Shown here in pieces: positions 33,017 through 63,870 of a DNA stretch of 64,000 nt. Source of the DNA: Marsupella aquatica (taxonomy: Eukaryota > Plantae > Marchantiophyta); contig OZ316894.1 in NCBI GenBank assembly GCA_973895155.1, forward strand, positions 5,418,944-5,482,943, given 5' to 3'. The notes under the pieces are model-generated. The model saw only the letters and a program-made list of their open reading frames with translations, made no database searches and was not told the origin of the DNA. The stretch's first letter is position 1, and the number at the start of each line of letters is the position of its first letter. Position numbers and translations under genes: made by a program.

Positions 33017-36000
33017 TTATCGCATGTTGAGAAGGAACTGCGCCGGTTGTTCAATGAGCTGCTTCCATTTGTTGCAGAGTCTGGCCACTGTGGCCCCATC
33101 AACTACTCTGTGATCAGCACCCCAGGTAACCTGCCCATTTCAAGCCAAAGAATTTTTTGTCAGAAAGATCTCATCCTTTCTTCTCATCCTTGCGAAAAAC
33201 AGAAACATTACTTGTGATTGTATTAGAGAGTCCCTACAGCTTCGTGAGAGTCGAGAATCCAGTTGGATCTTCTCACCACCTTTCTATTAGTTGCATTTCA
33301 GAATCCTACAACGTATCCCACATGCCTCTGTAGATCACAAGCTTTCATTCAATTAATTTCTGAGGTGCTGTTACGCATCACATTTATTGACGGGTTCTTG
33401 TCCTTCATGGACTTACTCCTGAAATGAAACTACAGATACATGAAAAGAGCACAAAAGGTTGGGAGATTTGTGCTTCGTGACTTACACCCATAATGCTGGC
33501 AGGGTAAATGCTGCCGTCTTGTGCATATTGTGGCAGCTTGTGTATTCTTCCAATGGCCACAATGGCAACCTCTGGAAGATTCAGGACTGGTGATCCATAT
33601 TTCCCTCCAATTGCACCAACGTTTGACACCGTGATGGTGCCTCCTGTGACATCCTCACTACATAGCTTGTTTGTTACTGCGAGCTGAGTCAGACGGTACA
33701 GCTGCTCGGCGATCTACAACAAGAAATGAGTTAGATATGTTTACCCAGACATGAATACAGACGGGACCAAACAGCCAAAGGCTGAGACAGCCCTTACTTA
33801 ATAGAGCTCTTTAGGAAGATATCCTTCGAAGAAATATCATTGATCGGAACAGACAGTAGACGACGATCAGATGCACCTACACCAGGTTTTCTATACTTAT
33901 ATGTGAGCCTTCACATCAGTGGTCAATGTGTTCCAGGACGAGAGAAAATAACCCTACGAAAAAGTAGCAGACTGGCCGCCGTCAACAACAAGAGAAAGCT
34001 AATACGTCAGATGCTTACTTCAGGCACGGACAAATTCTGGACATTCTTGATGTTCGGAACAACGAGCCCAGCGCTGGTGGCAATGCCCACTCCGATATTA
34101 TGTGATCCTGAACAACTCCAGAAGTACTCCAAATTTTATGCGTTAGAAACTAAGCCACAACCAATAGGGGCAATAGCTACAAATCATTAGCTTGACATAA
34201 AGTAAGACTTACGAGGGAAAAAACCACAACATCGGTATTTGGGTCAGGTGAAGTGATCTCTACCGACAATATAAGCCATGCAATAATTTCAACATGGAAT
34301 TGTCGGCATCACAATACATGAACAGATATAGCAACAAACTCATTCACTGAGGACGTAAAGCCAGTAGTAACTCTTGATACACACCTCGCTGTGTGATCTC
34401 TGAAATGTCTTCATTTACAGTACTATTCATTAGAGGATAGTCTTTCAAAGCTAGAGAGAGAGCCTTGAGCAGAAATGGCAGGTATGTGAGCTTCACTCCC
34501 CGCTCCAAAGTCATATCCTTGAGACTATCCTTGAGCTGTACAAGAGCATCAACGTTGATGTCTTCTGTATAGTAGAAATGGGGAACAGCAACAGCTGCTG
34601 TCATTGCTTTAGCCATTATCCGACGAAAACCCCTGCAGATATTTCACATTAGCTAGGCCCAACAGATATTTAAAGATCTTCCTGATGTTCAAATTCCAAA
34701 GGATATCACTCTGCAATCGACCCTTAATTGGTCTCTTTGAGTTCAAGCTGGATTTATGCAAAACACAAACACACCTGACAGGAATTATCTCGTCTCTTCC
34801 CAGCACGTCCTCAATGGCAGGTTTTATTGCAACCGACGCCTTAACATCACAATCGTCCTCGGAAAACAATTTATCCCCCGTTGATATTCGATCATTCACT
34901 TCGCTATCAGAATTCGGGGAGTCTGGTTCAATTGCTCGGATCTCTTCATTCAACTCCTCCCTGGACATGACAAACTTCAGTACATCCTCTTTGAGTATTC
35001 GTCCATTATTGCCACTTCCAGGTACATCAGCCAGATTGATACCATAACGCTTTGCCAACTGGCGAACTGCAGGTATTGTTTCAATCCCCTTTCCTGCCAT
35101 TTCTATTCTTGACGATTCAGTCGGAAACTTTGCTGAAATGTCTTCATGTTCCTTTCCGTCCGAAGGACCATCCGATGTAGGACGATTGTTGCTCTCGATG
35201 ATAAGCTCTAGTAATGTCTCTCCAACCTGTAAAGTACATGCAGACGTTGAAATGGATATAAGGGTGAACAATCTTGCACATGCCCATCTTCTGTGAAACA
35301 AGGAATCCGGAACACCCAATCCTCGAGTACTATAGACCAAAAGAATTCCAGTTCCTAGATGTATTTCCATGATATTCAATCCAAATCGAATTCTTCATAG
35401 ATAACTCGCTCTTTCATGCATGCTTTTCATATCGGCTTGAATTTCAAAGCCTCAAAATGAGTACTTATTTCAGACAGCCTGCAAGGGTAGAAAAGCTAAA
35501 TAGACAAAGCTGTTTACAATTTAATAAGCCCGAACTCCTCCGCTTAAGACTCACTGAAATCAAATTCAGGAGTAAAGAAATTTTCAGTAATCTCTCAGGA
35601 GGGGTAATTAATCACCTTCACGATATCACCTGGAATGAAGTTGACTTTTGTCACTTTTCCCTTGTATCGGCTAGTGATTTCTACGCTGGCCTTGTCACTC
35701 TGCACCTCACATAATGGTTCAAATTCTTCCACCTCGTCTCCCTGACTAGATGCAATAACAGGAACATCAGAACTTTCAGCAATACATGATTGCCCGGATC
35801 TGGTCAACATATCATGGAACACTTCCTTGTGCTCATCGAAAATTGACTGGAGTAGAGAGAACTGCAGATGGATATGAATAAACCACAACCACTTTACACT
35901 AGGAATTTCAAATCAAGTTCTCGGCAAGTTTAGACAAAAGCACAAAGCCAATGACGAGAATGTATGCATATGAAGAGAATTTGAAATCTACACGAAGAGA

Positions 36001-39568: not shown

Positions 39569-41281
39569 TGTAATGGTGATGTTGTTGCTCACCACCAACC
39601 CATGCGTCTTTAAGTGCAAAACCGAATGGCAAGACATCACGGCAACCAAGGGCTTGACGGGGAGTTGAGTGGTGGACCTAGCCACCCAGCGCCCTCACCA
39701 ATCCGAGCATTCACGCCTAAGTGCCCCTGGTGCCCGAACGCCTCCACGGAATACTTTGAGCAAGCACCCTAGTGCCTCTTGCACCGCCAGCGGCCCCTCC
39801 CATACGAAGCTGCACTTGCTCTCCAACACGACCGCTACTCAACGGTCCTCACTGTCTGCACAAGCAATCAAGCACCTCGGTAAGTAACCCTTCAAAATCT
39901 AGAACTTGCCAAGTCTAGCCGAGAGTCTAGCATCCTAACTCAAGCTCAACAGACATTGGTAAATAGGTCAATGATAGGTCCTCCCGATGCCATAAGCCAG
40001 AACCAGAACCCACGCCCATTGTTCATCCAGAATAGCTCCTTCCTTGGGCGCGGCCCGAGTTCCCCCTTGTACCTATCCATCACCAACTGACCGCCCTGAC
40101 CCCAGGACATGCTCATGGTGCAAGTAGTGTCGCTTGTCCTAAAGCTTGTCCCAACACGTCGGGACCCGAATGGCCCCGACTCTAGCAAACAACTCCCGAT
40201 TTGCCTTACTGATGGTCTAGGGACCGAACACACTTGGAACTCAACCTCCACACCTACTTGGCCTTGCCTCCCCAACGCAAGCTCCCTTGGGAGACTGAAC
40301 GCGGCTTGGCTACTGTTCGGCAAGATTTGGCAAGCGGGCAAGTTAACATCCACAAATCCCAAGAACCCATGGTGCCCCGGACCCAGATGAGCTCTCCAAC
40401 GCACCCAAGAAGTCCTCCAATGGACTTCCCGTTGGGAAGATATTGCCATTTCCGTTTGGCAGTTTCCCTTAGTGTCGCGACCGCCGTGGCTCATGACTTC
40501 GGCTCGCCCTTAGCCCCCAGGGAGACACCACTCCCCTCGTATATGCTTCTGGAGACCTGCCACCCTCGGACCAGTTTTGGTCCCTAAACATTTGGCCTCC
40601 AACCCGGATCCTATCATGCATAATGGGCACGCCACCAATTGGCAACGCCCATAACTTTCTCGTTAGGCTTCCGCAAGCGGAGTGCCTTAGTTAGCCCGTT
40701 GTGATCGGGCCGACCCACTGCTCATGCCTAGGTCCTCAGGTCTCATCGCTGCTTGGGGCCCCTGATCGGCCCAACCCGGATCGGGCCATAACTTGCGCCC
40801 CAAGCGTCCATTGCCCATGGCGTCAACTCCATGGGCCTTGGGCCCAAGAGGAGCTCACACTCAAGCCCTCAGAACTCAAAGTCCATCCAGAGGTCCAGAC
40901 GATCGTCCTTGAGCCCGGCCCATTTCCTCTTGACCCTACCAGCTCTCAACTAGTCCAAGTCCTTAGTGTGTGTCACCAGCTTGGCTCCTTGCCTTCGCTA
41001 GCGCCACGTCTCGTTGCCCACAAGTCTCCCCATGCTAAGTCCTTCCCGAATGGCCTATCCGGGCCTGGACCATAAGGGAGCTCGGCGTCGGAGTCAGCGA
41101 CGCCGGAGCTAAGTGTTAAGGTAGCCGAGTTCCGCAACTAGTTGGAATCAAGGCAAGGAGTTGAGTTAGGGTTGGGGATGGCTCACTTCACACACTGTCC
41201 AAGTTGGGTGCGCCTGGACCCAAAACCCACGGGTGGTCTCACGGTGGTCCCTCTCAGCTAGTCGTGAGGGCACTCCAAGAG

Positions 41282-41457
41282 TGTCGTGACATATAGTATC
41301 ATAGCCATAGTGTATCGAAAACATACAAGTCACCGGTAATGCATATGTGCAAGCTGCTAGCAACCAACATGCATAGAAAAAGTCCAATCACATTCCCAAG
41401 TGCCAAGAAAAAGCAATTGAGGTGGTATGTACATAGTGGAGGTGTAAACCTCTGTAT
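41282..41457 (-). repeat. Terminal repeat segment A (3'-terminal copy)
   Basis: Direct repeat of 41819-41988 (about 7 substitutions and 2 small indels counted by eye). Confidence 0.92.
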
Positions 41458-41816
41458 ATAAAAGGCGTAAGAGAAACAATTGTACTGAAATTGAATCAAA
41501 AACCGGCAGGATGCCAAGATCGGTCGGGAGCATCTAACGAATCACTGTGTGAATCCCGTGTACGGAACCGACGAGCACTATCTGAGCTCTGCCAACAGCA
41601 ATTCAAGAAGAACTGAAAACCAACAAAGAGAAACACACCCTAAGTAGATCAAGTCAAGGCGTCACACTAGCAAGCACGTTTTGCTTCAAGAACGGCCTAG
41701 ACTTGCTACAAGAACATGACACTAACTCAAGTAGTACACTAGCCCTAACTACATACCTAGCGGGCATGCGAGGGACATGCCGATGTGCACAAGCGGCACT
41801 ATCCCTCGGCATGACA
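41458..41816 (-). repeat. Terminal repeat segment B (internal copy, 359 bp)
   Basis: Direct repeat of 50933-51291 (about 9 substitutions by eye, all transitions). Confidence 0.93.
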
Positions 41817-41818
41817 GT

Positions 41819-41988
41819 TGTCGTGACAATATAGTATCGTAGCCATAGTGTATCAAAAACATACAAGTCACCGGCAATGCATATGTGCAAGCTGCTAGCA
41901 ACCAACATGCATAGAAAAAGTCCAATCACATTCCCAAGAAAAAGCAACTGAGATGGTATGTACGTAGTGGAGGTCTAAACCTCTGTAT
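41819..41988 (-). repeat. Terminal repeat segment A' (directly after the PPT in sense orientation)
   Basis: Repeat of 41282-41457, separated from B by the 2-bp spacer gt (41817-41818). Confidence 0.92.
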
Positions 41989-41996
41989 CCCCCCCC
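41989..41996 (-). other. Putative polypurine tract (G8)
   Basis: C8 on the plus strand abutting the first base of A' in sense orientation, ~30 nt after the PHD stop codon. Confidence 0.7.
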
Positions 41997-42028
41997 AGAC
42001 CACAGTCACAAGGAGGGCTGAGGAAAAG

Positions 42029-42181
42029 TCAGGTGGCATGTGGAGCACAGGAACGGCAAAACCATAACTCTTCTAGCACCTGGTTAAGTTCAGGCCGCAG
42101 GCAGAAAAGATGGTACCCTCCATTGCAATTATCACATAGCAACATCTGGTCAGCATCGTCAATTTGCAAACACACTTTTCA
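42029..42181 (-). pseudogene. PHD zinc finger at the C-terminus of the element integrase
   Basis: [C>stop]KVCLQIDDADQMLLCDNCNGGYHLFCLRPELNQVLEELWFCRSC = C4HC3 pattern, in frame with integrase ORF 42179-42943. Confidence 0.9.
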
Positions 42182-43280
42182 AGGGTAGTCCACAGGTGGA
42201 ATCCAGGTAGAAGTCACAATGGTGGGATCCAGGTTAGGCAGATGACAAGGGGCGCAATTCTTGGCATTGTCAGCAATTGTGCGCCCATCTGCCCCTTGTA
42301 ACTCTAGCACTCCAGACGGTCGAATAGCTTTAACCCTGAGAATAGTACGACTGGTAGAGGTGTCCAGGGTGTCGTTAGCTTGCCGCTGCAAGTACACAAA
42401 ATCTCCCACATCAAACTTCCTGACCTTGGGCTGAAAAGTGCCCCCCTCGTGTGTGTGCATAACGCAGTGTGTCCCTATGTTGTGCAATGGCCAAATTCTC
42501 CATGGCCATGGGCATAACCCTCCTGAATAGGCAGCCCTCTCAGAGATCACATCAGACCAAGTCACAGCTGAATCCAAGTCCACCACCTGAAGCATGTGAG
42601 CAGCAATAGCAGAAGGTGGAATTGGGTGAAGACCAAACAACAAGAAGTAGGGAGAAAAGTTAGACAATAATGCATGTCTAGACATCCTATACCCCATGGC
42701 AATGTAGGGTAAGGCCAGGTCCCAATCCTCCTTGTTTTTGGTGAGACAAATCTTCTGGAGACCTTTCTTGCATGTCTGAACCTTGCGCTCTGCCAAGCCA
42801 TCTGCCTGTGGGTGATCTCGTGATGTCCGGCGATGATCAATGAGGGCCTGATCAAGCAGCTCTTGGAACTCTCCTCTAAACTCTAAGCCCTGGTCAGTGA
42901 GACATTCTGCACAAGCTCCAAAGCGGCTGAGAACTTGTTGCAAGAATGCCTAGCTGGTGCTACGAGAGGTCTTATCCGGCAATGCCACAAGTTCTATCCA
43001 CTTGGAGAAATGCTCTATCATGATCATGATGTAGAGATTACCCCGAGACGTGAGGGGTAATTCTCCAACCAAATCACATGACCAGCGATAAAACATGCCC
43101 TGAATAGGGAGTGGATGAAGTGTGGGTTGCCAAGATGTGAAAGAAATCCTCACCCTATCACACTATTTACACCGGGCAATAACATCTCGAACCTGGCCAT
43201 GCATGCCTCTCCAATGATAATGAGGGACCAAAAGGCCGTAAGTCCTCTTAACGCCAAATGACCAAGCTCAGAATGTACCT
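42182..43280 (-). pseudogene. Gypsy DDE integrase (rve), interrupted by a stop and frameshifts
   Basis: VHSELGH.. HHCC region, WSCDLVGELP..IEHFSKW, LTDQGLEF, HPQADGLAER, SPYFLLFG, FDVGDFVYL. Confidence 0.9.
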
Positions 43281-45093
43281 TACGGATAAGGCCAACCCCC
43301 TCATGAATGGGTGGAACCACCACTTCCCTGTCTGGCAAGCAGCGCATGAGATGATTTCCCTTCCACAAGTAACGCTTGGACCTTTGCTGAATTTGGTCTC
43401 TCTGGGTTGCAGTAACATGTATGGGGTACTCCCCATGCTGCAAAAATCTCAGAGTGTCGTTGTCCTCCCATATGTCCACCACAGGTTGGTCAACAATGTA
43501 GCATGGCAGCAAAGCAAGATAGGTAGATGCATGAAATGTAGGCAGGATGGAAACCTGGTCAAAATCCTGCCGTGCATCTGAGGAATCATCGGAGGCAATC
43601 AAAGGGCTGCGGGACGTAGTGTTAGCATTTTGATGTGTCACACCAGGCCTATGAATTACCTCAAAATCATACTCCTGGAGTATGAGCGCCCCACGAGCAA
43701 GCTTGCCAGTAAGCTTGTCGTTGGTCATCAACCACTTCAAGGGCTGGTGGTCGGTGTAGAGGACAAACCTGGTCCCATAGAGGTAGGGCCTATAATGTAT
43801 GACAGCCCACACAACAACAAGGCATTCACCCTCATACGAAGAATAATGACTCTCTGCCTGATTGTTGCTCCTGGATGCATAGGCAATGACGTACTTTTTA
43901 CCTTCCTCATCATGCTGGCCCAGAATGGCACCAATCCCAAGGGCACTCCAATCTGTGTGTAGCACAAAGACCTTGCTGAAATCAGGTCTTCTCAGCACCG
44001 GGTATTCTGAGAGCTTCTCCTTCAAAGTGGCAAGTGCTGCCTCAGCATTTGTACTCCATGTCCAAGTCACATTCTTTTTCAACAAAGCATACAATGGGTG
44101 TGCAATGGTGCTAAAATCTTTGATGTAGATCCGGTAGTAATTGCACAACCCAATAAAACTCCTCAAAGTGTGAACATCGGTAGGAGTGGGCATTTCCAAG
44201 ATGGATACCACCTTGGCCCAGTGAGCCATGGTTCCATTTGGAAGAATGCGGTGCCCAAGGTATACTACTGATCTAACAGCAAATTCACACTTCTTGGGGT
44301 GTATCTTTAGGTTCACCTTCTTAAGCATCATGAATAGCTCCTCGAGGTCAAGTAGATGCTGGTCAAATCCTTTGTTGTGGACCAACACATCATCAATGTA
44401 GCATTTCAGAAACTCAGCTCCTTGAAGAACCTGGTCCATGACTCTTTGAAAGAATATGGGCGCATTCTTCAAGCCAAATGGCATCACCAACCACTCCCAT
44501 AGTTGGTTACTACCATGGAAAGTTGTTTTCTTGCGGTCCTTTGCAAGCAGCAAAATCTGGTTAAAGCCTTGCCTTAGATCCACAAGAGTGAAGATGTCTG
44601 AGTTTCCAATCCTGTCAAATAGCTCCTTTGGCCGTGGCATGGGGTACCTGTCCTGGGGTGTGACCAGGTTCAGTGGCCTGTAGTCCCTACACATGCGCTT
44701 CTCTGTCCACAATCCACTCGAATCCTTCTTTGCTGGCATCACTATAGCTGCTGCAAAATCTGATGTAGATGGCTGAATAAGACCAGCTTCATATAACTCT
44801 TGGCACCTCTCATCCACCAGCTGCCACTCATGCTTACTCAAACGATGTCTCCGCCTGAAGATAGGTGTTTCATCAGCCAACTCAATGGAGAACTGCATGG
44901 TCTTGCACTTACCCAAGTCCTTCATAGAGAAAGCAAACACGTTCTCATGCTTGAGGAGCAAATTCAGCAGCTGGTCCTTCTGTCTTTTACTCAGGTGGTT
45001 GCCCATGATGAATGTGTAGTTGGCAACACTAGGAATAGGACCTGATGTACTCGTGCTTGAAGAGCCAGAAGTGCTAGCCTCTCCACTGTCCAA
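43150..45093 (-). CDS. Gypsy reverse transcriptase + RNase H (part of decayed polyprotein)
   Basis: RMCRDYRPLN, DLRQGFNQI, VMPFGLKNAP, YIDDVLV, LRSFIGLCNYYR, LHTDWS, YEGECL, YTDHQPL. Confidence 0.95.
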   Translation of the reverse strand: MDSGEASTSGSSSTSTSGPIPSVANYTFIMGNHLSKRQKDQLLNLLLKHENVFAFSMKDLGKCKTMQFSIELADETPIFRRRHRLSKHEWQLVDERCQELYEAGLIQPSTSDFAAAIVMPAKKDSSGLWTEKRMCRDYRPLNLVTPQDRYPMPRPKELFDRIGNSDIFTLVDLRQGFNQILLLAKDRKKTTFHGSNQLWEWLVMPFGLKNAPIFFQRVMDQVLQGAEFLKCYIDDVLVHNKGFDQHLLDLEELFMMLKKVNLKIHPKKCEFAVRSVVYLGHRILPNGTMAHWAKVVSILEMPTPTDVHTLRSFIGLCNYYRIYIKDFSTIAHPLYALLKKNVTWTWSTNAEAALATLKEKLSEYPVLRRPDFSKVFVLHTDWSALGIGAILGQHDEEGKKYVIAYASRSNNQAESHYSSYEGECLVVVWAVIHYRPYLYGTRFVLYTDHQPLKWLMTNDKLTGKLARGALILQEYDFEVIHRPGVTHQNANTTSRSPLIASDDSSDARQDFDQVSILPTFHASTYLALLPCYIVDQPVVDIWEDNDTLRFLQHGEYPIHVTATQRDQIQQRSKRYLWKGNHLMRCLPDREVVVPPIHEGVGLIRKVHSELGHLALRGLTAFWSLIIIGEACMARFEMLLPGVNSVIG

Positions 45094-45308
45094 GCTGCTA
45101 GCATGCTACTGATAAGGTGATGAGGCCTCTCCAAGGCCTGTTGTATCTGTTGCTCTGGTCTGATCCACACCATGAAACTCAGAAATAATATCAGCCACGT
45201 TACAAGGGACCTCCTCCCCCCCAACACTTGGACTGAAGCGGTGAGTGTTGAATAGAGGTAAGTGCACTTGGTCTGGATGCCATGTAGCAGCACCATGGAG
45301 TGGTAGGG

Positions 45309-46649
45309 CTAAACTCCTGATGCTGGATGAATGTACATCTGAAAAAGGATGCAAGTGACCAGAAGCCAAGTGAGAGCATTAAGATCCATTACCCTGCCAA
45401 GTAAAGCATTCCTGGCCAGCTTGGTGATTTTGGTGTGGCATGTAGTACCGGGTTGGAAGCCCATAGCCCGTTCTCTCTCCTCAGGACTAGGTTCATCCCA
45501 TGTACCGGTAGAATATCGGTAAACCAGGCCAAGACCATCACCCTGAAAAGCATGTGCACCTGGAAAGGACACAAATGTAGGCCAAGCAGCACGGGGCTGT
45601 CCAATGGTATAATTGGCTGGATACCAAGGTGCTGGCTCTTGCCGTGTAACTGGTTGGCAAGAACTGTCAAGATCCAAAATCTGGTCCACTGTGAGGTTAG
45701 TGTCCCTGGATGTGTGGTGAAGAGCTAACTCCAACAAGGAAGGTGGTGCAAGGTTAGTCCAAAAGTTACAAAGACAATGTGCATAAGAACCACAGTGCAC
45801 TGCATCAATGAGAAGGGGTGGTCCCAAGTAGTGTTGGACCACACTGAAATCCTCTTTGACCTGTGGACGCTGGTCAAACTGAGATGGAGTATTCTCAATG
45901 ATATAACCAACAACAGGATAAAGGGATTGAGCCCAGGTGAAAATCTGAACCAATGCTGTGAAAAGGCCAGAACGAGAATCATGCAGTCCAGCACCGTGAC
46001 CAACAGCTGAAAACCCTTGGCATTCCCAACCAGCTATGATCAAATCAAGGGAGCCAAGAAGGGTTAAGTGCCGGTGCTGGACAAGCTGGATATCTGGAGG
46101 GAAGAAAGAAAATGCAGACTTCCATGCACTGTGTGGAAACTGCTGGGGAAATCGCTCTGAAAATTCCAGCAGACGGGATTCAGCCACTTGCCTTGCACCT
46201 GGATCAATGTCCACGTAGATGTACTGCTTCACCACCATGCCAGACTGTAGGAGAGCTTCCAGGCCTGTAGAAATGCCACCAAAAAGCTCAAGCAATGTAA
46301 GGCCATCCGGAGCAGGAGTCCATGTAACTGGTGCGCTCAAGATTGGGGCTATTGGCTGTCCATTGTGCTGCCCAAGGTCTTCAAACTTGCGCAATGCAGC
46401 CACCAAAGGTCCATGGGCTGCTTGGAGCCGTTGTACCACCTCTGGTTGATGATCCACGTTGCTGGAAAGTGCTGCTATACGTGCAGCAGCATGTGCAGCA
46501 GCATGTGCAGCAGCCACCTCATCGTCATCCTCCTCAATCCAATCTTGCAATGGGTGGTTGACATAGGTAGTTGTGTGCACTGCTTTCAACACACAGTGGT
46601 GAGCCATAGGTGTATGGGCACCATGCAAATCAAGTGGAATGTATCCCAA
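45309..46649 (-). CDS. DNMT3-like C5 cytosine DNA methyltransferase domain inside the retrotransposon polyprotein (between protease and RT)
   Basis: Motif I LELFGGIS, II YVDID, III DIQ, IV IAGWECQGFS, V DSRSGLF, VI IIENT, VIII IDA..AHCLCNFWTNL, IX EERERAMGF, X ARNALLGRVMD. Same frame as the protease ORF, separated only by one TGA. Confidence 0.88.
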   Translation of the reverse strand: MGYIPLDLHGAHTPMAHHCVLKAVHTTTYVNHPLQDWIEEDDDEVAAAHAAAHAAARIAALSSNVDHQPEVVQRLQAAHGPLVAALRKFEDLGQHNGQPIAPILSAPVTWTPAPDGLTLLELFGGISTGLEALLQSGMVVKQYIYVDIDPGARQVAESRLLEFSERFPQQFPHSAWKSAFSFFPPDIQLVQHRHLTLLGSLDLIIAGWECQGFSAVGHGAGLHDSRSGLFTALVQIFTWAQSLYPVVGYIIENTPSQFDQRPQVKEDFSVVQHYLGPPLLIDAVHCGSYAHCLCNFWTNLAPPSLLELALHHTSRDTNLTVDQILDLDSSCQPVTRQEPAPWYPANYTIGQPRAAWPTFVSFPGAHAFQGDGLGLVYRYSTGTWDEPSPEERERAMGFQPGTTCHTKITKLARNALLGRVMDLNALTWLLVTCILFQMYIHPASGV

Positions 46650-46667
46650 GTGTGAGCCATCAGTATG

Positions 46668-47786
46668 TCAATCAACTCTGTAGTATGCATGCTCATGCCA
46701 GTTGTCAATGGTAAAACCTGGTGGGAACAAAGCCTCCTGGCCAATGAGCACATCATACGTAGTGGCATTGGTAACCAAACATCTGACTGGGAAATGCAGT
46801 TCCTGAATTGTACCTCCATTAAAAGTGAGAGTGAGTAAAGTAGAACTCTCACCCAACACATCCTCCACAGTGCCACTAGCAGTCCGAATATGCCACCTGG
46901 ATTGCTGTAAATGATTAGTCAGCAGTCCCATCTTCTTGGCGGCAAACTGAATGCCCAATATCACTGGTTGAGCACCTGTGTCTAGCATGACCATCTGAGG
47001 AGTGTGACCCTCCAACTTGACCGTTGAATTCCTATTGTCAACAATGGCAATGGTGGTGGAAACTAAAGTCCTGTCACTAGGCACCACTTTTGGCAAATGA
47101 TGAGGTACCTTGTGAAGGGAGTTAATGTCCACGGTCTTCCCACTCAACAGCATAGCCAAGAAAGATGGACCAACATGACCAGAATCCAGTGTAGCTCTAG
47201 TCACACAATCTGCAGCAATACTGTCATCTCTACCACTGGAAATTGGTACTGGGATAACCAAACCAGTGGAAGCATGTAATGGAGAAGAAGAAGGTCCAAT
47301 ATGTACATGAGATTGGACCTCCAAAACCGCTGTCACAGGGGCTGATGAAAAATGCAGTGAGCCCTCTAGCGCTCTGATGACAGCTCTAGCATCCAACTGT
47401 AAATCATGGCAACTGAAAAGTGGAGTTGTAAGAATCCTTTGTGCCATACCAGAGGTGACATGCTCAAGCAGCTTAGGAGAAACAACTCCCTGTGAAATGT
47501 CAGCAGCACCTGGTGGTGGAATGGATATAGCTGCAACTCCCTCCCCCCTCGCCAACAAGGTGCGCTCTTCAGCGAGTGTGAGTGGCTGAAAAGATTGGGG
47601 CATGATAGCCCGAGCTCCCCTGGCTCTAGTCATAGGACCGGCAGCAAGACCATCAGCCTGTACAATTCGACGTGTGGGAGAAATACGGAAGGCAGCACTG
47701 GAAGTTGGTAAGCAAAATAGGAAGGGCAGAATGAATCTGAAAATTCTGTTGTAAGGCCAGGCTGTGTAGCAGAGGACAACACACAT
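46668..47786 (-). CDS. Retrotransposon aspartic protease region
   Basis: VMLDTGAQPVILG, IRTASG, YDVLIGQEAL. Confidence 0.85.
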   Translation of the reverse strand: MCVVLCYTAWPYNRIFRFILPFLFCLPTSSAAFRISPTRRIVQADGLAAGPMTRARGARAIMPQSFQPLTLAEERTLLARGEGVAAISIPPPGAADISQGVVSPKLLEHVTSGMAQRILTTPLFSCHDLQLDARAVIRALEGSLHFSSAPVTAVLEVQSHVHIGPSSSPLHASTGLVIPVPISSGRDDSIAADCVTRATLDSGHVGPSFLAMLLSGKTVDINSLHKVPHHLPKVVPSDRTLVSTTIAIVDNRNSTVKLEGHTPQMVMLDTGAQPVILGIQFAAKKMGLLTNHLQQSRWHIRTASGTVEDVLGESSTLLTLTFNGGTIQELHFPVRCLVTNATTYDVLIGQEALFPPGFTIDNWHEHAYYRVD

Positions 47787-47899
47787 TCACCCATATGAGC
47801 ATCAAATGGCAAGCCATAGAAAGAGCGGGGTAGAGGTGCTGAACTATCAGTGATGCCTGGGCCAAGGATCGATTGCATGTGACCAACCGATTGAGAAGG

Positions 47900-49429
47900 A
47901 CCAGCAGAGGCAGGTGACTTGCCTTTGATGTTGGCAAGTTGGGCACGTAGGGACTCAACCTCATGAGTCAGAGACTGGAGTTGAGTTGCTTGTGCGTTGT
48001 GAGCCTCCTTCTGAGCTGGTTGCTTCTGTGGCTGCTTGGGCGATTTGGTGGCACCGGGTGCTTTACCACTGGAAGGAGGAGCAACTGAGGTAATAGGAGC
48101 CCTCCTAGCTGGTGGGGGAGTGGAAGTAGGAGCAGGATGAGGGGTCTGCTGTCATAGCTGCTTCCTCTCTGGGAATTTGGCAAAACAAACTGCCTCCAAG
48201 TGGCCCACTTTCCCGCAAAAATCACAAGACAGGTCCTCAGTAACAATATCACATTCATTAGCCTTGTGATTGGGGTTACCACAGTAGTTGCAAGATGGCA
48301 ACATGAAAGCAGCATGGGCTGGCTTGGTCTTGGAACCATACTGTGGCACACGGGAAGGAGTGGCCAGTGTAGGGGCAGCAGCCTGGTACCTGGATCGCGA
48401 TGGACGCGCAATACTGGCCTCATAATGTGCATGGGCCAACTCAAGTTTCTCAGTAGTGTCATAGACATTGAGCAGGGTGTAGCTGTCTCCAAACTCTGAG
48501 AATACTTGCTGCAACACTTGCGAATGGAGAGCTGGTGTGCCCTCCAATGCGCAAAGATAGCGATGAGCAGCTTCCAAGTCAGTGATGCTCTGGTTGTCCT
48601 TCAGCTTGAGAAGTCGGTGATACATCATCTTCAATGTTTCATCCCGCTGCCTCACAAAGGTGGCCAACTGCATGATTTTGTCAGCACTCTTGATTGGGAA
48701 TTCCAATTCAAGAACCTAGAAAAACTCAGCCGCTGGATCAGCAAAGGCAGGAGAATCAATTGTGGGAGAAATGCCTGATGTAGCCTGTGCCAAGACAGTG
48801 GGAGTAACTGGCGTAGTGGCAGGAACTGGAGTAGGAGGGGAAGTAGCAGGAGCAGCAGCATGGGCTGCAATGGCATTATGTAATGCCAATTGTGAGGCAG
48901 CTATAATTGCACTAGCATAGGTAGGATTAGGCAATTATGTGACAGCAAGCAGCCGTTGAGAGTGCTGCTCATACACATCCAAAGCCTCATGGTGCACATA
49001 CCTGGCTAGCTGCTTAAATGCAAAAGCATTTGTGAAATTGCTACCGTACTTCAACTCCAATTCGTAAACGACAGTGTAGAAAGTGGATTTGAACTCACAC
49101 AAAGAAACAGTGCCTGGCCGCCCGTTGAAGCGCTCAATGCAGCCAGATGAGTGGCTAGCATCCATGCTGTATGTCGGTGAAGCTGGAACAACCACTGATG
49201 CAGAAGGGGTAAATGGCAAGGAAGTGATAGCAGGCTTCGGGGTAGTGGTGAAGCGACCGCCAAATTGAGCAGAAGGATTACATGGTGTGGGTGCTGATGC
49301 TGTCTGCGGACATTGTCAAAATTGCCGAGACTCCAATGAAATTGGCACCAAGGGTCGTGGATCACTCCGTAAGTGGTACCTGGGTGTTGGTGGCGATGAA
49401 CTGCTACCTCCTGGCTCGTCGGCTGACAT
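47900..49429 (-). pseudogene. Gag of the DNMT-gypsy element (probable ATG at 49429), broken by stops and frameshifts
   Basis: MSADEPG.. in frame with IERFNGRPG..; QRDETLKMMYHRL; two CCHC knuckles CNYCGNPNHKANEC and CDFCGKVGHLEAVC. Confidence 0.8.
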
Positions 49430-50919
49430 GCTGCATGCTCACCCGGGGTGCCAATGGGAAAGAAATTGACAAGAAAAAGGAGTGGCAGCCCCAAGGCTCG
49501 GAAATGAAACCCACAAAGGAAACAAACGGTGCAAGGCAGCAATGTGTCGAATGTGTAAACACACAGAAAAACCGTCACGGAGAAAAATTGTCGGCAAAGA
49601 ATAGACCCTTAAAAACTCCGGAAAGGTCTAATGTTGGCAGCAATAAAGAAATCCGGGAAAAGAAAATAGAAGTGGCCCCCCTTTAAGTGTATACATCGGG
49701 GCCCCCCTTAAGTCTATGCATCGGGGCCCTATGTGGACCCAAAAATTGGCAGCCGGCCGGCCGAGTGTGTATACACACTCGTAGCACACGGCCCTATGCA
49801 GTGGTAGTCGGAAGGGGATGGAAAGAGGTGAGGAATTACTATGGCCGGTGAGGGAAAGAAATGGGAGGGCACGATGCGCTATGTACATACAGGTTGCGGA
49901 GCACAAAAGGCATAAGGAGGAAAAAGCAAGACGAAGCAAGGCGAGGGCAAAAGGAAAGAAACAGCCAAAAAGAAGAGCATTGGGCCCCTCTTAATGACTT
50001 GGGTTGTGCAGCATAGGGCTTTGCGCCCCCCCTTCTCCTTATGAGCTCCCAAAGAGGGAGGCTACGAACTCCCCCTCAATCCCCTCCTTAAATGCTTCTG
50101 TGGGCCTCGTGCCCCGGTGAAAGTACTCCCCAGAGAAGGGAGTCAATGTACTCTCCCTCCCCTCTTTAATTCAGCACAGGGCCTCCTCTTAATGCACCAT
50201 AGGGGCTTGCGCTCCTGCCTTGGCTCCCCCTCCCCCTGCTTTAATTGTAGCATAGGGCCTCGTGCCCTACTTTCGCTTCCCCTCCCCTCCTCTAATGCCC
50301 TGTAAGTTGGGCCTCGTGCTTGGCAGGACTCCCGAGAGAGGGAGTCGAATGTACTCCCCCTCCCCTCCTTAATGTTGCTTAGGGCCTCGTGCCCACTCCT
50401 TCGCTGCTGCCTGCCTCAGCTCTGTCTCCCCCCTCGCGCTTGTGCTCGGCATGATGCCCTATGCGCAGCCTGCCTTATGCGATCGGGAGGGAGGCGAAGG
50501 GGAGTCCACAGCGGAAATGGCAAAAAAGAGAAAAATGGGGCGCGCGGTCGGAAGGAAGTGGTCGCGCGGCGGCCGGGAGGTGGTCGTGCATGGCTGGAAA
50601 CAAGAAACGCTGGAAAGGGGCAAAAACGCAAAAGAAAAAGGCAGTCGACAGCAAGTCGGTAGTCGATGCGTAGGCGGCAGTGACAATCAAAGGCAGAACA
50701 TAGCAGAAGGGGTCACGAAGGTAGCCGGGAACAAAAGCACGGGCTCAAATGGGGATGTTAGGTGTATACACATAACACCACATTAAACCCATAACTTTTA
50801 ACCCACCATTCCAATGCTGCTCAAAGAAATTGCACCAGCTTCAACGGAAATTGTATGTACCGACCTAAGCAGCTGAGACGAGAATGTCTCCTATCTTCTT
50901 CTCCTCACCACGAACTTGG

Positions 50920-50934
50920 CAGTTCTTCTTGAAT
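50920..50934 (-). other. Putative self-priming primer-binding site
   Basis: cagttcttcttgaat (50920-50934) is the exact reverse complement of attcaagaagaactg (51076-51090) inside B'. It abuts the inner end of B', and no TGG tRNA-type PBS directly follows B'. Confidence 0.7.
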
Positions 50935-51291
50935 AAAAGGCGTAAGAGAAACAATTGTACTGAAATCGAATCAAAAACCGGCAGGATGCCAAGATCGGTC
51001 AGGAGCATCTAACGAATCACTGTATGAATCCCGTGTACGGAACCGACGAGCACTATCTGAGCTCTGTCAACAGCGATTCAAGAAGAACTGAAAACCGACA
51101 AAGAGAAACACACCCTAAGTAGATCAAGTCAAGGCGTCACACTAACAAGCACGTTTTGCTTCAAGAACGGCCCAGACTTGCTACAAGAACATGACACTAA
51201 CTCAAGTAGTACACTAGCCCTAACTACATACCTAGCGGGCATGCGAGGGACATGCCGATGTGCACAAGCGGCACTGTCCCTCGGCATGACA
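50933..51291 (-). repeat. Terminal repeat segment B' (5'-terminal copy, 359 bp)
   Basis: Repeat of 41458-41816; starts TGTCATG on the minus strand. Confidence 0.93.
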
Positions 51292-52185
51292 AGAGTAGTA
51301 TAGTGTGAGGGGGGGAGGTGGCGCAAGGCGCAAGGGTGAGTCAAGAGGGGAAGTTGCTCAGGGAGTTGCCTTGCCTCGAGTGTTGGGGAGGGAGTGCGCT
51401 AGGCAGGATTGAGTCGAGATCGAGGAGGGAGTCAAGAGGAGAGTTGTGAGGGGAGTCGTGACAAGAGGGATTTGGGAGGAGCAAGGGGAACTGGGGTTGT
51501 CGTGCGGAGGGAGGCAGACATTGTCAGGGCCAGGTGGGAGGCGTATGTCAGAGGCAGTTGGGGCTCGGTTGCTGTAGCCTGCATCCAAGGGATGGCATGT
51601 TTTTTTGGTTGCTAATCCTTGGTTTTTTCTGCGTTTCAATTTCCTTCATCCAATATAGCCCGGCATTTTGAATGACGACCACGCCATAAATTGGCGCAAG
51701 AGTGTATTATAGTTTTTAATATATTGTTGCGCTAGTTAAGTTAGGGTAGAGCTTTGGTTGAGGGCAAATGTGAGGCGCAAGGGGAGGATTGACATGCCAA
51801 ATGTGGGATGCAGCATCAAGGATACCTCACCCCTCCTTGTCATCCATGCATGTGGAGGATGAATTAAAATTCCTTCAATTAAATTACTGTATTTTCCTTG
51901 CGTCATCTATCACATTGTGTTTAATTAACCTCCTTCAATTAAATCATTATCATTATCACATCTACTACTATAATACCCTATCCGGCCAAAAGTGGTGTAT
52001 TGTTCGTTTACAAACTCACTTTTGGAGAGAACATTCTCTGACCATTGGATTTATACTCTCTTTTATCCTGGCCTTTCATTATTCAAAAAGCAATCTCCGT
52101 AATCCAAAGGAGACAAGACAATTATTTTGATATACCACAAAGATTCTGTAGGAGCGAGATATGGCATACGGTCTATGTGAGTGCC

Positions 52186-52290: not shown

Positions 52291-53219
52291 CATTATGAGG
52301 GGACAAGACTAGAAGCCATAGAGATCAAAGTAATTCACAATGAAAGACAACTTTGAGGCTCATAATGAGCCTCCCGTACCTTTTCGCCGCCCACTGCCCA
52401 CACCTGCTGCCCTATCTTCTTCACTCTCACATTTTTTCTAAGTGTAAGTAGAAGGTGAATGATCCCCACTTTTGGGTGGGGTGATTGACAAAAGCACAGT
52501 CACATTGTCACTAGCAGGACTCGAACTGGGAACCTACCCCATCCAAGTGAGCTCCCTCTACCATTGAGCCTAGGGGCAGCTGGTGTCCAAAATGACTCGC
52601 TCCAGGTATTTACCCTTATTCCAACGTGCGTAATACTGGGCAGCGGGCAGCAAGGTACGGGGCTAATCAATGATAATCTCATTAATTAGCCTCGATCTTG
52701 AGGTTCGTCTCTAATTCAAAGTAGGGAGGGGAAATTAATGATGCACCCATGGGTGAGGGGCTGAATATATAATGTGTTACCTTCCATACGTACATAGGTG
52801 GAGGGGATGACACAAAGTGAAGCAAGTGAAGATGAAAATAAAGAAAACAAGTAAGCAATAAGAGGGAAGAAGGGGAGAAAAAAGACACCCTTGCTTTTTA
52901 TTGGGTTGTGGAAGAGGAGGAGGGGGCTGGGGGGGCGGGGCGCGGGTGGGCAGCGGCAGCCCAAGAGAAAGGGGGTGAGGAGACCATGAGGAGGAGTGGG
53001 GATGTCACCTTTGACCTAGCATTGTGCAAATGCATGTGCCTCAGTCACCATAATCTATTTAGCTCTCTATTACTTTTTGCAACAACATCTTTCATCTTTT
53101 ATGCAATGACATCGTTTACACAACATCTTAAGTGCAACACACGGGTATTGAACACGACCACAACATCTGTATGGTTGGGAAATGTCTCAACAATTGCATC
53201 GCAAAGCTTATAATTATGT

Positions 53220-53960
53220 TTTTTCCTCACCTTGACATCTTTTCTTGCATTTTCATATTTATCTCTCCTTAACGTCTTTACCTTGCATTGACATCTTTTT
53301 TCACATTGACATCTTCATCTCACAACAATATCTTCTTCCACCCTTGACAACTTTTCCCTTTTCATCATCTTTTTCTCTCCTCAAGATCTTTTCTCACCTT
53401 GACATCTTCTGTTTTTCTCATCTGGCCATCTTTTTCTCACTTGAAATCTTTATCTCACCAAGACATATTTTCCTCATCTTTGCATCTTTCTCACCCGGGT
53501 TCTCACCTTGCCATCTTTTCTCTCCTCAATATCTTTTTCTCACTTGGCTCGACTTCTTTTCCTCACCTCGCCATCTTTTCTCACCTTGGAATATTTATCT
53601 CACAAATACATTTTTTCCTCACCCTTGACATCTATTCTCTCCTTGACATATTTTCCTCATCTTTGCATCTTTTCTCACCCGGGTTCTCACCTTGCAATAT
53701 TTTCTCTCCTCAATATCTTTTTCTCACCTTGACTTTGCTTCCTCACCTTGCCATCTTTTCTCACCTTGGAATCTTGATCTCACAAAGACATTTTTTCCTC
53801 GCCCTCAACCTCTATTCTCTCCTTGACATATTTTCCTTATCTTTGCATCTTTTCTCACCCGGGTTCTCACCTTGCCATCTTATCTCTCCTTGATAATTAT
53901 CTTTTTCTCCCGTAGCTTGACTTCTTTTCCTCACCTTGCCATCTTTTCTCGCCTTGGAGT
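53220..53960 (+). repeat. Pyrimidine-rich tandem array (catcttttctcaccttg units) with ~180-bp higher-order period
   Basis: catattttcctcatctttgcatcttt(t)ctcacccgggttctcaccttgc recurs at ~53464, ~53647 and ~53827. Confidence 0.85.
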
Positions 53961-55039
53961 CTTTTGTGCAATGCTCGGTGCAATGCACAAGCATCGGGCT
54001 ACAACACTACAGCAGTATGAGTTGCCTTGACATTTAGTTTATGATTCATGAGTGATGGTGAGGTTCTTCCCATCTAGCTCTGTAATATCCTATCCCGCCA
54101 TTATTGGGTTTCTTCTGCTCACAAAAATTAAAAAAGGCAGGATCCAATTCTGATCATCCATCTAAAAGATTACTTTTAATCACCCTTAGGTGCAAGCAAC
54201 ACTGTCACATTGCCTCACCCATCGGACACTAATTGGTATGGTAGAGGCTCGCGTACACTTGCTCAAAGTACATGCACAAAGAGAAAAGACTCAGGTACAC
54301 CTTCAAGAAGGACAAATGTGCTTGAACGTACAATGATTATAGGTTGTACTAGAATGTACAACTGATAATTGTGTTCACATATTAAAACTATGACACTATG
54401 GAGACATAAGAGATGATGGGAGATTGGAGAGAAAATGGTTGGGTTTGAAAAAAAGGGGGAGGGAGAAAAAAAAGGAAAACAAAATAATTTAAGGGAAAAT
54501 TTTCAAACAGAGACATGTTGAAAAGGTGGGGAAAAGAGAAGAATGGTAGAAAGAAGTTGTCAACGGTTTGTGGTTGATCAAATAGATTTAAGTTGTTGTG
54601 TGGATCCGTTGTAGCTCGGATTGTGTGTGTCATGGAACAGGTCGTTAGTATTTTGACTATGTGAAGCTTGAGTGGATTAGTCCTGAGCTTTAATGTTCTG
54701 ACTGAGTTTCCAAATTTGGTTATCATGCAAAAAGAATTATGATACATATGCATGGGAACTATCCTCCTTGAAGTTCGAGAATGTGCTGAATATGCAGATT
54801 GTCATGATTGTATGCTATGAGCTAATATGGATGGATAAAATAGACCAAACACATGTCAAGATGGGATTGGATTTGACAAAACAAAAAAATGGGCTCATGT
54901 AGAAAAAGTGATAATGTGTGAGGAAAGTTGATGCTTGGTTAGACCACCACGTTTGACCCAAAGAGCTTCAGGGTCCTCATTTATTTTCTTCCGACCCATC
55001 ACCCACAAATAAGTACAGGTTTGGGGGGAATTTAATAAA

Positions 55040-58200: not shown

Positions 58201-58548
58201 AATATTGTGGTTTGAAAATTGGTGGTGATAGAATAAACGGTGGGAATAAGAGGCTATTGCCCATATGAATTATTCTGTCTAGAAATAAGTGATGAGTTCT
58301 TTTGAAATTTGCAATTCTCCATTCATGAGAGAGAAGCGTGGGTCTGCCGGATCCTATCAAAGATTTTGGAAGATTGGTCTATAGAGGATCTTCCTCCTTC
58401 ATAACCAGCCTTTGAATCATTAATCTCACTTGCTGCTCCTGTTGTGCGCAGAAACAGAATAAAGTGACAAGAATTTCATCTCATGAGAGAGTGAATTTTA
58501 TCACACAGTGCACACGTGCTGCCTTGCTGGGTGGATTGATTCCTGTGC

Positions 58549-59220
58549 ATGATGGGTAGCTATTTTTCTAACACCGTGATTTCAGAATTGACCTTGGACG
58601 CTGTGACCCATGTGCTCTCATGGTTGTATTTTGTCATAGGGGTGGTGGATAAGTGCTTTGATTCCATGCCCCGGGGGCCTGGAGGCAGCAGCAACCACGG
58701 AGGCTTTGCTGAGGTTGAGTTCATTGTCAATGACACCAATTTTGTTAGCACCAATAACTATCAATCCCTTGGAGACAAAATTCAAAAATCATTGAAGCTA
58801 GTGGAATTGGGTTCTATTAACAATTGTGGAGTCAATAGTAGACACCTTGGGAATGGAAAGGGAAATCAAACCATGGGTCTTGGTGGTGGTGATGATCATG
58901 TGTGTGCAATTTGTCTTGGGGATATCATGGAAGAGGAGAAAGTCTACAATTTGCCCCAGTGCAATCACATCTTCCATTCAAATTGTCTTGATAGATGGGT
59001 GAGTCATAAGCACTACACATGCCCTCTCTGTCGGAATTTTCTCATCACAGGCTCCGACAGCATGGCAGGAGGAGCAATCATGATGCAAGATGAGGACAGA
59101 TTGGTGGATGAGGACCACAGCTTATCTCTGGGCATTTGGTTTATTCCTCGGTGCGCATTGAACGTCAATTTTGATTGCCAGGGCTGGACGCATACTTTGA
59201 TGCGGCTTGCAGGATTCTAG
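58549..59220 (+). CDS. RING-H2 (C3H2C3) E3 ubiquitin ligase, RHA/XERICO/ATL-like, single exon
   Basis: CAICLGDI..LPQCNHIFHSNCLDRW..TCPLCR, with a hydrophobic N-terminal segment. Confidence 0.9.
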   Translation: MMGSYFSNTVISELTLDAVTHVLSWLYFVIGVVDKCFDSMPRGPGGSSNHGGFAEVEFIVNDTNFVSTNNYQSLGDKIQKSLKLVELGSINNCGVNSRHLGNGKGNQTMGLGGGDDHVCAICLGDIMEEEKVYNLPQCNHIFHSNCLDRWVSHKHYTCPLCRNFLITGSDSMAGGAIMMQDEDRLVDEDHSLSLGIWFIPRCALNVNFDCQGWTHTLMRLAGF

Positions 59221-62200: not shown

Positions 62201-63601
62201 CTTGTGTTGTCTCAAAGGCCTCATCTTTCAATGTTGAGCCTTTGAGCATGAGCTTGGTGGCTATGGTGTGGCTGACCAAGTTGTGTGCATGTAACGTGGA
62301 TTCCTTGAAGCACAAGGTGCATTAGGCTTGACATACATGTGTGATCGCGTCGGATGGGATCGTTGTTGGATTAGCACCGATCGTTGTTCGATTTGCACTA
62401 TTGAAGAAGATTATTGTGGGTTTTGGGCATGTATGGACATGGGTTCCATTTGTAGATCATTCTCTTAGGTTTGTGTTGTTAGATTGTAACTATGCTTGGA
62501 TATGTGTGACAAACGATGTATGTTGTGTAGCGATGTGTATGAGCACGACACAGTTAAAAGAAACCCTGGTTGGAGGAGGTACAGTAGGTTGGTCAACTGC
62601 ACTAGATCTTTCCAACAATTGGGAAAACGAGGGTCCCAAGTGAGGCCGCTCATGGAGCCTTGTCTCACCGTGCGAGCGCGAGCGTGGAAACCAGCAAGGC
62701 TGGCAACATTGCTTCTCTCCTCCTCCTTTCTTTTCCCTGCTGGTAATCACACATCAAAATGTGGCTGCATTCATTGATTGAAAGGAAAAAACTAGTATTA
62801 TCATTGTATGCAGGGGTGTCGTACATAGTATATGTCATATTTTGATGTGCAGTTATCGAGACCCCTTTCTTTTGTTTCCAAAAAAAGACAATTAAACAAC
62901 AAAGTAGAAAGACGAAGCAGCAACGAAAGAGGAGACCACACTACAACTTGCTTCTCTTCTTTGGTCTCCTCTTTCGTATATGGGAAGCACCTTGCATTGG
63001 AGGGAAGCAACTTCAGTGGAGGGAAGCAACCTGATTACTCTCAGCAGCTTGCAGCAAAGGAGGGAAGCAGCTCGCAGGGGAGAGGAGTGGGTTGAAGCCT
63101 GGGTATTTCTCAGCAGCTCGTAGGGGAGGGGAGCGGGTTGAACCCTGGGTATTTCTTAGCAGCTTGAGGCCATGGAGGGCCAGAGTTTGTGCGCAACCCT
63201 GAGCTTCCAGCGATGGAGGCAATGAAAACGTGCGTCTGGGCAATGCTCAGCATCTCAGAGCTATGGAGGGCCTGGGCAACAATGCAGTGGAAACTTTAGG
63301 CGCCTGGGCCTAACTTGTAGTGAGAAGGGCCAAATACTGTTGGGGAGACAAAAAAAGAGAGCTTCACTCTCTTTCTGGCCCCCAAGTAGTGAAAGTTTGA
63401 ATTTAGTTTAACTCCCCCAAGTAGTGAAAGTTTGGATTTAGTTTAACTGGCCCAATAATTTACTACAAACTGAAGACGAGTTGCCCTTAATGCACATTAA
63501 GGCTAAGTTTGATTGCATGTTCTTTTTTGTAGTTAGATGTTTAGCAGAACTCCTGAAAAAGTGAACTGCACAGTTTCATGGCACAAGGTCCCAGCAATAG
63601 C

Positions 63602-63870
63602 CAGTGTGCAGCAGTGTAACTATCCTGGACAACCGACTGTGGTCAGCAGTGTACCTATCCTGGACTGTGGTCAGCAGTGTAGCTATCCTGGACTGTGGTC
63701 AGCAGTGTAGCTATCCTGGACTGTGGTCAGCAGTGTACCTGTCTGGACTGTGGTCAGCAGTATACCTGTCTGGACTGTGCTCAGCAGTATAACTATCTGG
63801 ACTGTGCTAAGGAGTGTAACTATCCTGGACTGTGGTCAGCAGTATAACCATCGTGGACTGTATAACCTGG
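63602..63870 (+). repeat. ~27-28-bp tandem minisatellite (about 9 units)
   Basis: cagcagtgtagctatcctggactgtggt repeated with variants. Confidence 0.9.

Follow-up and report, generated by a model that had tools for sequence, protein, structure and literature searches.

Split terminal repeats and an attachment-like site inside the long terminal repeat of a Ty3/gypsy lineage found in the liverwort Marsupella aquatica

How does a retrotransposon with a DDE integrase come to lie in a chromosome with its long terminal repeats (LTRs) cut in two and the pieces permuted? The question is raised by a Ty3/gypsy element at positions 41278–51295 of a stretch of 64,000 nucleotides from the liverwort Marsupella aquatica (GenBank assembly GCA_973895155.1, contig OZ316894.1, positions 5,418,944–5,482,943 of the forward strand), which we call the window. 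The initial annotation of this DNA had proposed that the element integrated from a circle carrying two LTRs, at an attachment site (att) inside the LTR. Our results show that the permuted layout is real and family-wide, and the junctions of the family point to an integrase that would cut at this inner site.

On the minus strand, which is the sense strand, the window element reads CTCT, B' (359 nt), internal region, G8, A' (170 nt), AC, B (359 nt), A (176 nt) and CTCT again. The AC, which is GT on the plus strand, is a 2-nt spacer separating B (to 41816) from A' (from 41819). B' and B differ by nine transitions in 359 nt, A' and A by seven mismatches and two indels (1 nt and 7 nt). At its outer ends the element has TG..CA (TGTCATG and CACGACA), and a target site duplication (TSD) surrounds the whole. 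The layout, the repeat lengths, the TG..CA ends, the AGAG TSD, all coordinates and the imperfect palindrome CACGACA-ac-TGTCATG at 41810–41825, all of them first described in the initial annotation, were verified in the sequence (Table 1). We use att for this palindrome and B/A junction for the place where B meets the terminal A.

No second copy of the element's flanks was found within the window. Contigs with diverse flanks start at 41282 (14 in run X9, agreement 0.44, and 10 in run X10, agreement 0.43), and the junction between the internal region and B' is seen in other copies of the family too, in variant form (4 contigs, agreement 0.97). Runs X10 and X11 hold a contig with 29 nt of B' and the right flank with zero differences, judging by which the window's insertion may be shared. 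The flanks are GC-rich (39800–41277 and 51296–51600, 56–60%), and near 41139 lies the end of a high-copy repeat (47 contigs, diverse continuations).

Is the layout peculiar to this copy? For comparison we used the best 80 of 488 confirmed loci from a metagenome scan (57–82% identity). Loci sharing flanks were counted once (L014 and L015 with L016; L019 and L020 with L017; L022 with L021; L028 with L027; L058 and L064 with L061; L065 with L063; L067 with L057; L078 with L075; L079 with L080), and L073, which has no CA end, was excluded from the copies with both ends. Among the 13 independent two-ended copies, eight, the window included, read B-internal-A-NN-B-A, where NN is the spacer, and five read B-internal-A. 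Beyond the window there are thus seven complete loci with the permuted layout, and 12 more independent 3' blocks carry both copies of A. All four letters of the TSD match in 8/13 copies and three of four in 4/13 (every mismatch is C/T); in L030 the TSD is absent. Over the 13 copies 45 of 52 TSD letters agree, a number reached in 0 of 20,000 flank permutations. TSD lengths of 3 or 5 bp were rejected and 4 bp was kept. A was found upstream of B in none of 22 independent 5' ends, that is, a full 5' LTR was never seen; 21 of these 22 ends begin TGTCATG.

The initial annotation had allowed that relatives might carry conventional TG..CA LTRs, which would have made this copy a one-off rearrangement or an autointegration, or that A and B might form the LTR of an unrelated plus-strand element. 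Neither objection held: no conventional LTRs were found, and independent copies share the layout with different 4-bp TSDs. Contigs from public runs of four organisms also cover the element: the A'/polypurine tract, att and internal/B' junctions recur, and the joint expected of a conventional LTR (41816 to 41989) is not among the nine joints listed for these runs. Contigs of organism B run from A into a run of C and then into a different internal sequence, and one contig of organism C reads across att. Runs X1 and X6 and the air-metagenome runs X2–X5, with their small word shares, were left out. Terminal A copies follow their own A' (distance 0.104 versus 0.137; 237 shared differences of the same polarity, 246 of the opposite), and there is no separate terminal-A lineage. 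B' and B behave likewise (0.121 versus 0.196), with the exception of the 3' B of L034, which is closer to that of its sister L033 than to its own B'. No relatives were found among viral contigs. Two candidates, L089 and L090, were set aside after a check; the loci L089–L111, which come from a genome scan, are weak matches, mostly to the integrase core only.

Where, then, do the ends of the complementary DNA (cDNA) lie? A G-rich run directly precedes ATACA in all 21 copies with an att, and this adjoining polypurine tract (PPT) shows that the plus strand begins at the start of A. TGG is absent after B', so there is no ordinary tRNA primer site. The 15 nt at the end of B' pair with a site inside B' at 15 of 15 positions, which 0 of 200 shuffles equal. 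This complementarity between the predicted RNA 5' end and the primer-binding site (PBS) matches what is described for self-priming of the Tf1 type (PMC7175516). The metagenome family has the pair TAGTTTTTCTAGAAT with ATTCTAGAAAAACTA, in which, compared with the window, three pairs are changed on both sides (L080 compared). The best self-primer match falls at the homologous site in 19/22 copies, and in 13 of them at most 1 of 200 shuffles reaches it. A TATA-like box lies about 30 nt upstream of the self-primer in 9/10 loci, the primer duplex is present in the best fold in 5/7 cases, and the distant relatives L081 and L084 have their own differing but complementary pairs of 12–13 nt. With one cDNA end set by the self-primer at the end of B and the other by the PPT where A begins, the reverse-transcribed LTR is most likely A-NN-B and encloses TG and CA. 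The initial annotation had suggested such an LTR, A-ac-B, and the suggestion is strengthened by the self-primer, which it had not seen, and by the variable B/A junction described below. Terminal A would then be the upstream part of U3, derived from the 5' LTR of the cDNA, and B the remainder of U3 together with R and U5.

The two junctions of the repeats behave very differently. The att spacer is 2 nt long in 21/21 copies (GC in 10, AC in six, GT in three, AT in two). Of 23 independent B/A junctions, in contrast, nine are blunt and 14 altered. The small changes are loss of a shared AT (three copies), one extra base (three) and other changes (two). Three copies have large one-sided deletions, namely L011 (with 5 nt of microhomology), L012 (TSD kept) and L052, and in each the opposite end is intact or nearly so. 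The junction of L074 holds 134 nt of PPT and upstream DNA, and in L041 and L055 the end of B is joined to inverted internal DNA. One breakpoint of each inversion (7579–15463 in L041, 3986–4642 in L055) lies exactly at the 3' end of B; the other breakpoint in L041 is 15 nt into A, which resembles both cDNA ends joined to an internal break.

The contrast between the junctions (14/23 versus 0/21) is significant (Fisher's exact test, p = 8e-6, and 5e-5 without three doubtful loci). Under the strictest count, in which three losses of a 15-nt unit beside att are held against it, p is 0.002. This tandem unit is absent from just one of the two A copies in L034, L046 and L053 (A') and in L057 (terminal A), which belong to different subfamilies. 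On an integrase tree, shuffled labels cluster as much as the junction types do; the branch of L021 in this tree is long owing to an internal deletion. The inner att carries a change of TG to TA in 6/21 copies (L011, L016, L021, L033, L034, L046), compared with 0/22 5' ends, a pattern that would fit the decay of methylated CHG sites. Taken together with the affinity of each terminal A to its own A', these patterns indicate that att and PPT are copied through RNA, whereas B/A is probably made anew by end-joining.

How old is the inner att? Eukaryote-like contigs (L081–L088) inside prokaryote genome bins, which are probably contamination, carry relatives whose best segments are 43–54% identical to P0002, an intact homolog. 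GACA-GC-TG lies about 50–120 nt after the G-run in L081, L084, L085, L086 and L088; the contigs of L082, L083 and L087 end short of this region. Each of these distant motifs is modest taken singly (3–23 of 500 shuffles), and their position and sequence agree. L086 has the entire A'-GC-B-A block, with two identical 106-nt copies of A, and ends CACGACA at the flank. L081–L088 are spread over three subclades of a clade with 100/100 support, with a C5 cytosine methyltransferase (DNMT) domain before the reverse transcriptase, after RNase H, or not found. On these grounds the inner att seems to predate the arrangement of the DNMT.

The clade in question comes from a tree of reverse transcriptase and RNase H (39 rows), in which 32 rows form a clade with 100/100 support that holds the window together with proteins from Calypogeia, Marchantia, Klebsormidium and Closterium. 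The clade includes two Klebsormidium reverse transcriptase proteins, both without DNMT. Among named homologs the closest, at 80%, comes from the liverwort Calypogeia fissa; identity to a Marchantia DNMT-reverse transcriptase protein (P0084) is 38%. The position of the DNMT varies among relatives (L084, L088, L081–L083, P0124, P0125), either before the reverse transcriptase or after RNase H, and in L081–L083 it was not found. P0125 additionally lists PF01585.

The gene order is Gag, protease, DNMT, reverse transcriptase, RNase H, integrase and PHD finger, interrupted by stops and frameshifts. The Pfam rve match to the integrase (42953–43162, E 4e-5) is under the curated cut-off; P0002 contains a PHD match and resembles Ty3 Gag-Pol (its best match among solved structures, E 1e-94) and foamy-virus integrase. 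As in canonical Ty3/gypsy elements, Gag is followed by protease, reverse transcriptase, RNase H and a DDE integrase, and the ends are TG..CA with a short TSD. The family differs from them in that it does not have two complete direct LTRs at its termini, and in that the PPT adjoins ATACA and the PBS adjoins ..AT instead of TG and CA. A profile search of 68 stop-to-stop open reading frames (ORFs) of at least 60 amino acids on both strands found no member of the tyrosine recombinase family, as the initial annotation had supposed, although a heavily fragmented gene could escape such a search. The element is a degenerate member of a Ty3/gypsy lineage widespread in plants and algae, and we class it as a variant, not as a canonical Ty3/gypsy element.

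What mechanism could produce such insertions? Transcription would start inside B' at the sequence complementary to the PBS, and the RNA would prime itself as Tf1 RNA does. The plus strand would start at the PPT, giving a linear cDNA with A-NN-B at each end, whose termini would read ATACA... and ...AT, not TG..CA. Host end-joining would connect these two termini, the end of B with the start of A. The DDE integrase would then nick both strands of CA-NN-TG in the 5' LTR, each behind its CA, yielding ordinary 3'-processed ends with 2-nt overhangs. The product would be B-internal-A-NN-B/A with a 4-bp TSD, and a second att would stay inside, to be copied. This layout and TSD are what we see directly in the copies. 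A circle with one LTR would yield B-internal-A copies, which may alternatively come from later recombination between A' and A. We are fairly confident of four parts of this scheme taken together: self-priming, an A-NN-B cDNA, cleavage at the inner att and a newly made B/A junction. That integrase inserts from a circle with two LTRs, cut at the inner att, is a further step, to which we give an even chance.

Several observations weigh against this scheme or parts of it. The circle, the RNA ends and the cleavage are all deduced from genomic copies, and the relatives are old copies (repeats 81–94% alike) in short-read assemblies. Nine of the 23 B/A junctions are exactly blunt; L052, L041 and L055 may be later events or misassemblies. 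The tree of junction types is poorly resolved, with one starred branch, and too weak to prove independent origins. Self-primer pairing fails in 3/22 loci, and a pair was looked for in L085 and not found. The primer duplex is missing from the minimum-energy folds of the window (where it lies 5.3 kcal/mol above) and of L016. The window's B' also lacks, at 51090–51130, the TATA box seen about 30 nt before the self-primer in the metagenome family. On the opposite strand the 3' end of the window's B' (50933–50944) reads ATAAAAGGCG, which resembles the TATAAAAGGC box of the metagenome family, possibly by chance.

The main weakness of the circle concerns the choice of att. Because a circle with two LTRs carries two identical att sites, mirror products are expected, yet all eight two-repeat copies were cut at the 5' att and none is a mirror product (p = 0.004 under 50:50). 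Their absence is unexplained and fits a linear substrate more easily. It is conceivable, though we think it on the whole unlikely, that integration comes first and repair later: the integrase would cut the inner att of the 5' LTR of a linear cDNA and insert both CA ends, and the host would end-join the resulting chromosome break between the free end of B and the free start of A. Product, TSD and junction scars would be identical. The two att sites differ in their distance from the linear ends, which could explain eight forward and no mirror products, and single-strand annealing at the break would give the B-internal-A copies, which are common (5/13). However, every insertion would entail a double-strand break, presumably a costly one, the inversion in L041 would require a second break inside the element and is simpler in free cDNA, and no precedent was found in the literature searched. 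Genomic copies alone do not separate cutting and then joining a linear molecule from cutting a circle. Of the circle integration proposed in the initial annotation, cleavage at the inner att and a newly joined B/A junction are supported; on the free circle the sequence is not decisive, given that a linear cut followed by joining B to A leaves the same product.

Alternatively, B/A might be templated. In a model of PAT and Ngaro elements the joined repeat junction is copied from the RNA template; here, RNA would reach the end of terminal A, B/A would be copied from the parent and strand transfers would rebuild the repeats. The layout A1-ORFs-B1-A2-B2 is common to both (PMC4157794, PMC6681497), and nine of 23 B/A joins are identical and blunt. 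We nevertheless consider templating improbable. B/A is the sole varying junction, that of L074 retains DNA from the PPT side, junction types are unclustered compared with shuffled labels and differ between the starred sisters L033 and L034, and the PPT and self-primer already define a complete ordinary LTR without B/A.

Even less probable is that another enzyme, a recombinase or transposase acting in trans, cuts the ends. The role of the element's own integrase is read from sequence, and other enzymes could bind a palindrome as short as att. Yet the signature of a DDE integrase, namely CA ends, a spacer of 2 nt and TSDs of 4 bp, is present, the D, D and E residues are kept in the element's integrase, no tyrosine recombinase occurs in the 68 ORFs and att is conserved across the clade. 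Finally, an element with normal LTRs might have been rearranged once, struck by a nested insertion or misassembled, as the resemblance of B-A alone (41282–41816) to a normal 535-nt TG..CA LTR with a TATA-like word on the plus strand could suggest; this is refuted for practical purposes by the independent copies with different TSDs, the junctions recurring in four organisms and the missing conventional joint.

The layout has been glimpsed in print before. The initial annotation knew of no such architecture for a gypsy element with a DDE integrase, but one has been reported: the legend of Fig. 4c in de Mendoza et al. (2018; PMC5890265) gives DIRS-like repeats on a Gypsy element, KnitGypsy-Dnmt3 of Klebsormidium nitens. 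Like the window element, KnitGypsy-Dnmt3 combines Gypsy domains, a C5 DNMT in Pol and A-ORFs-B-A-B repeats (PMC5890265). Unlike our analysis, the text and three supplementary files of that paper give no TSD, att, primer or mechanism (PMC5890265). The two elements are compared by description; the Klebsormidium members of the clade that we examined carry no DNMT. We found no account of a mechanism for split-repeat Gypsy elements with a DDE integrase in the literature searched, which did not cover Repbase, most subscription journals or the figures of PMC5890265. The route through an inner att, a self-primer and an end-joined junction was not found described in that literature.

Parts of this route have parallels elsewhere. 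PAT, TOC1, Ngaro and VIPER share the arrangement A1-ORFs-B1-A2-B2, in which the inner B1-A2 is a copy of the joined outer ends (PMC4157794, PMC6681497). They use a tyrosine recombinase, whereas the window element encodes a protease and a DDE integrase, has a PPT, ends in TG..CA and is flanked by a TSD of 4 bp. To our knowledge, PAT, TOC1, Ngaro and VIPER elements leave no TSD. IS3-family elements (IS911) form circles in which the two ends adjoin, with a short spacer across which a DDE enzyme nicks. IS3 elements are DNA transposons that build this junction with their own enzyme, whereas the att junction of the window's family would be copied through RNA.

Among retroviruses, foamy-virus integrase is described as cutting its own circle junction after CA on both strands (PMC1180852). 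Studies of foamy virus and HIV-1 report that their integrases can cut palindromic two-LTR junctions within duplex DNA, giving 3'-processed ends, and that circles can feed integration in these systems (PMC1180852, PMC1905944, PMC4372172). The shared feature is a palindrome of the CA-NN-TG type as integrase substrate. The difference is that in the retroviruses, as described there, the joining of the ends itself creates the att, this route is one option and a colinear provirus results, whereas in the window's family att is templated inside U3, apart from the end-joined junction, and cutting it is seemingly the sole route. PBS and PPT remnants have been reported at provirus-host junctions, not at circle junctions (PMC2797772), and offer no more than a loose parallel. 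For self-priming, Tf1/sushi and plant Tcn1 elements are described as having an RNA 5' end complementary to the PBS over 11–15 nt and no tRNA site (PMC7175516, PMC6317226); these have ordinary paired LTRs and mostly a chromodomain, whereas the window element has split repeats and a PHD finger instead. Kuafuorterviruses are reported with ordinary LTRs (PMC11673190), and the available passages of a 2026 bioRxiv paper on adenine methyltransferase elements name Gypsy-DNMT3 once and do not describe its ends.

Table 1. Coordinates in the window of the repeats, junctions and predicted genes of the split-repeat element.
Feature	Position	Strand	Basis or remark
TSD AGAG, left copy	41278-41281	.	sequence comparison
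Terminal repeat A, 176 nt	41282-41457	-	3' end of element, ending CACGACA
B/A junction CCTTTTAT/ATACAGAGG	41450-41466	-	blunt in window copy
Repeat B, 3' copy, 359 nt	41458-41816	-	direct-repeat comparison
Internal att-like site CACGACA-ac-TGTCATG	41810-41825	-	halves equal the element's two outer ends
Repeat A', internal copy, 170 nt	41819-41988	-	immediately after PPT
PPT (G8; C8 on + strand), adjoins ATACA	41989-41996	-	sequence
PHD finger, integrase C-terminus, ended early by stop	42030-42178	-	Cys/His pattern
DDE integrase, broken by stops/frameshifts	42179-43300	-	D near 43075, D near 42895, E near 42790
Reverse transcriptase and RNase H	43150-45105	-	PF00078, PF17917, PF17919
C5 cytosine methyltransferase (DNMT) domain, between protease and reverse transcriptase	45309-46667	-	PF00145, E 3e-5; fused homologs
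Aspartic protease region	46668-47786	-	PF13975, PF13650
Gag region, zinc knuckles, broken by stops	47630-49430, upstream limit approximate	-	PF00098 and ORFs
Predicted primer-binding site (AT)TCAAGAAGAACTG, end of B', no TGG	50920-50934	-	complementary to 51090-51076
Repeat B', 5' terminal copy, 359 nt, begins TGTCATG	50933-51291	-	direct-repeat comparison
Predicted RNA 5' end and self-primer CAGTTCTTCTTGAAT, inside B'	51076-51090	-	15/15 pairs
TSD AGAG, right copy	51292-51295	.	sequence comparison

The same window contains a conventional control, a young copia element (19412–24681) with ordinary 258-nt TG..CA LTRs that are 99% alike, a 5-bp TSD (ATATT), a TGG-type primer site, a PPT and a polyprotein in two ORFs. 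Other Pfam matches lie at 1490–2200, 26240–26722, 28642–30655, 34609–35394 and 58540–59220; among them are a SAM-dependent carboxyl methyltransferase, a lone aspartic protease, LRR pieces, an E3-binding domain and a RING finger. Several tandem-repeat arrays, and a long inverted-repeat pair that is possibly a small DNA transposon, occupy 8413–9199, 10047–10859, 53206–53971 and 63379–63861.

What would such a route mean for the lineage? Whether circular retroviral DNA is a true integration precursor is an old and contested question, and for retroviruses circles are at most a side route. In the lineage described here, the cDNA ends themselves seem to lack a usable att. An inner att frees integration from exact primer removal, and imprecise cDNA ends are buried inside the insertion. 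Programs that need two LTRs to find an element (as in PMC6317226) would miss or misdate this high-copy family. The lineage also provides a natural integrase, together with a defined substrate of 16 bp, for the study of internal cleavage, and an integrase that inserts a circle with one short att could serve as a tool. That an old green-lineage Ty3/gypsy clade moved att away from the cDNA ends into U3 and inserts only from circles with one or two LTRs, by means of a DDE integrase adapted to cutting an internal palindrome, is a proposal for and against which we find the balance level. If it is true, end-joined or circular DNA, which is usually seen as a dead end, would be the normal insertion route, and this would be the first LTR retroelement lineage with circles as obligate integration precursor, convergent with tyrosine recombinase retrotransposons and IS3 elements.

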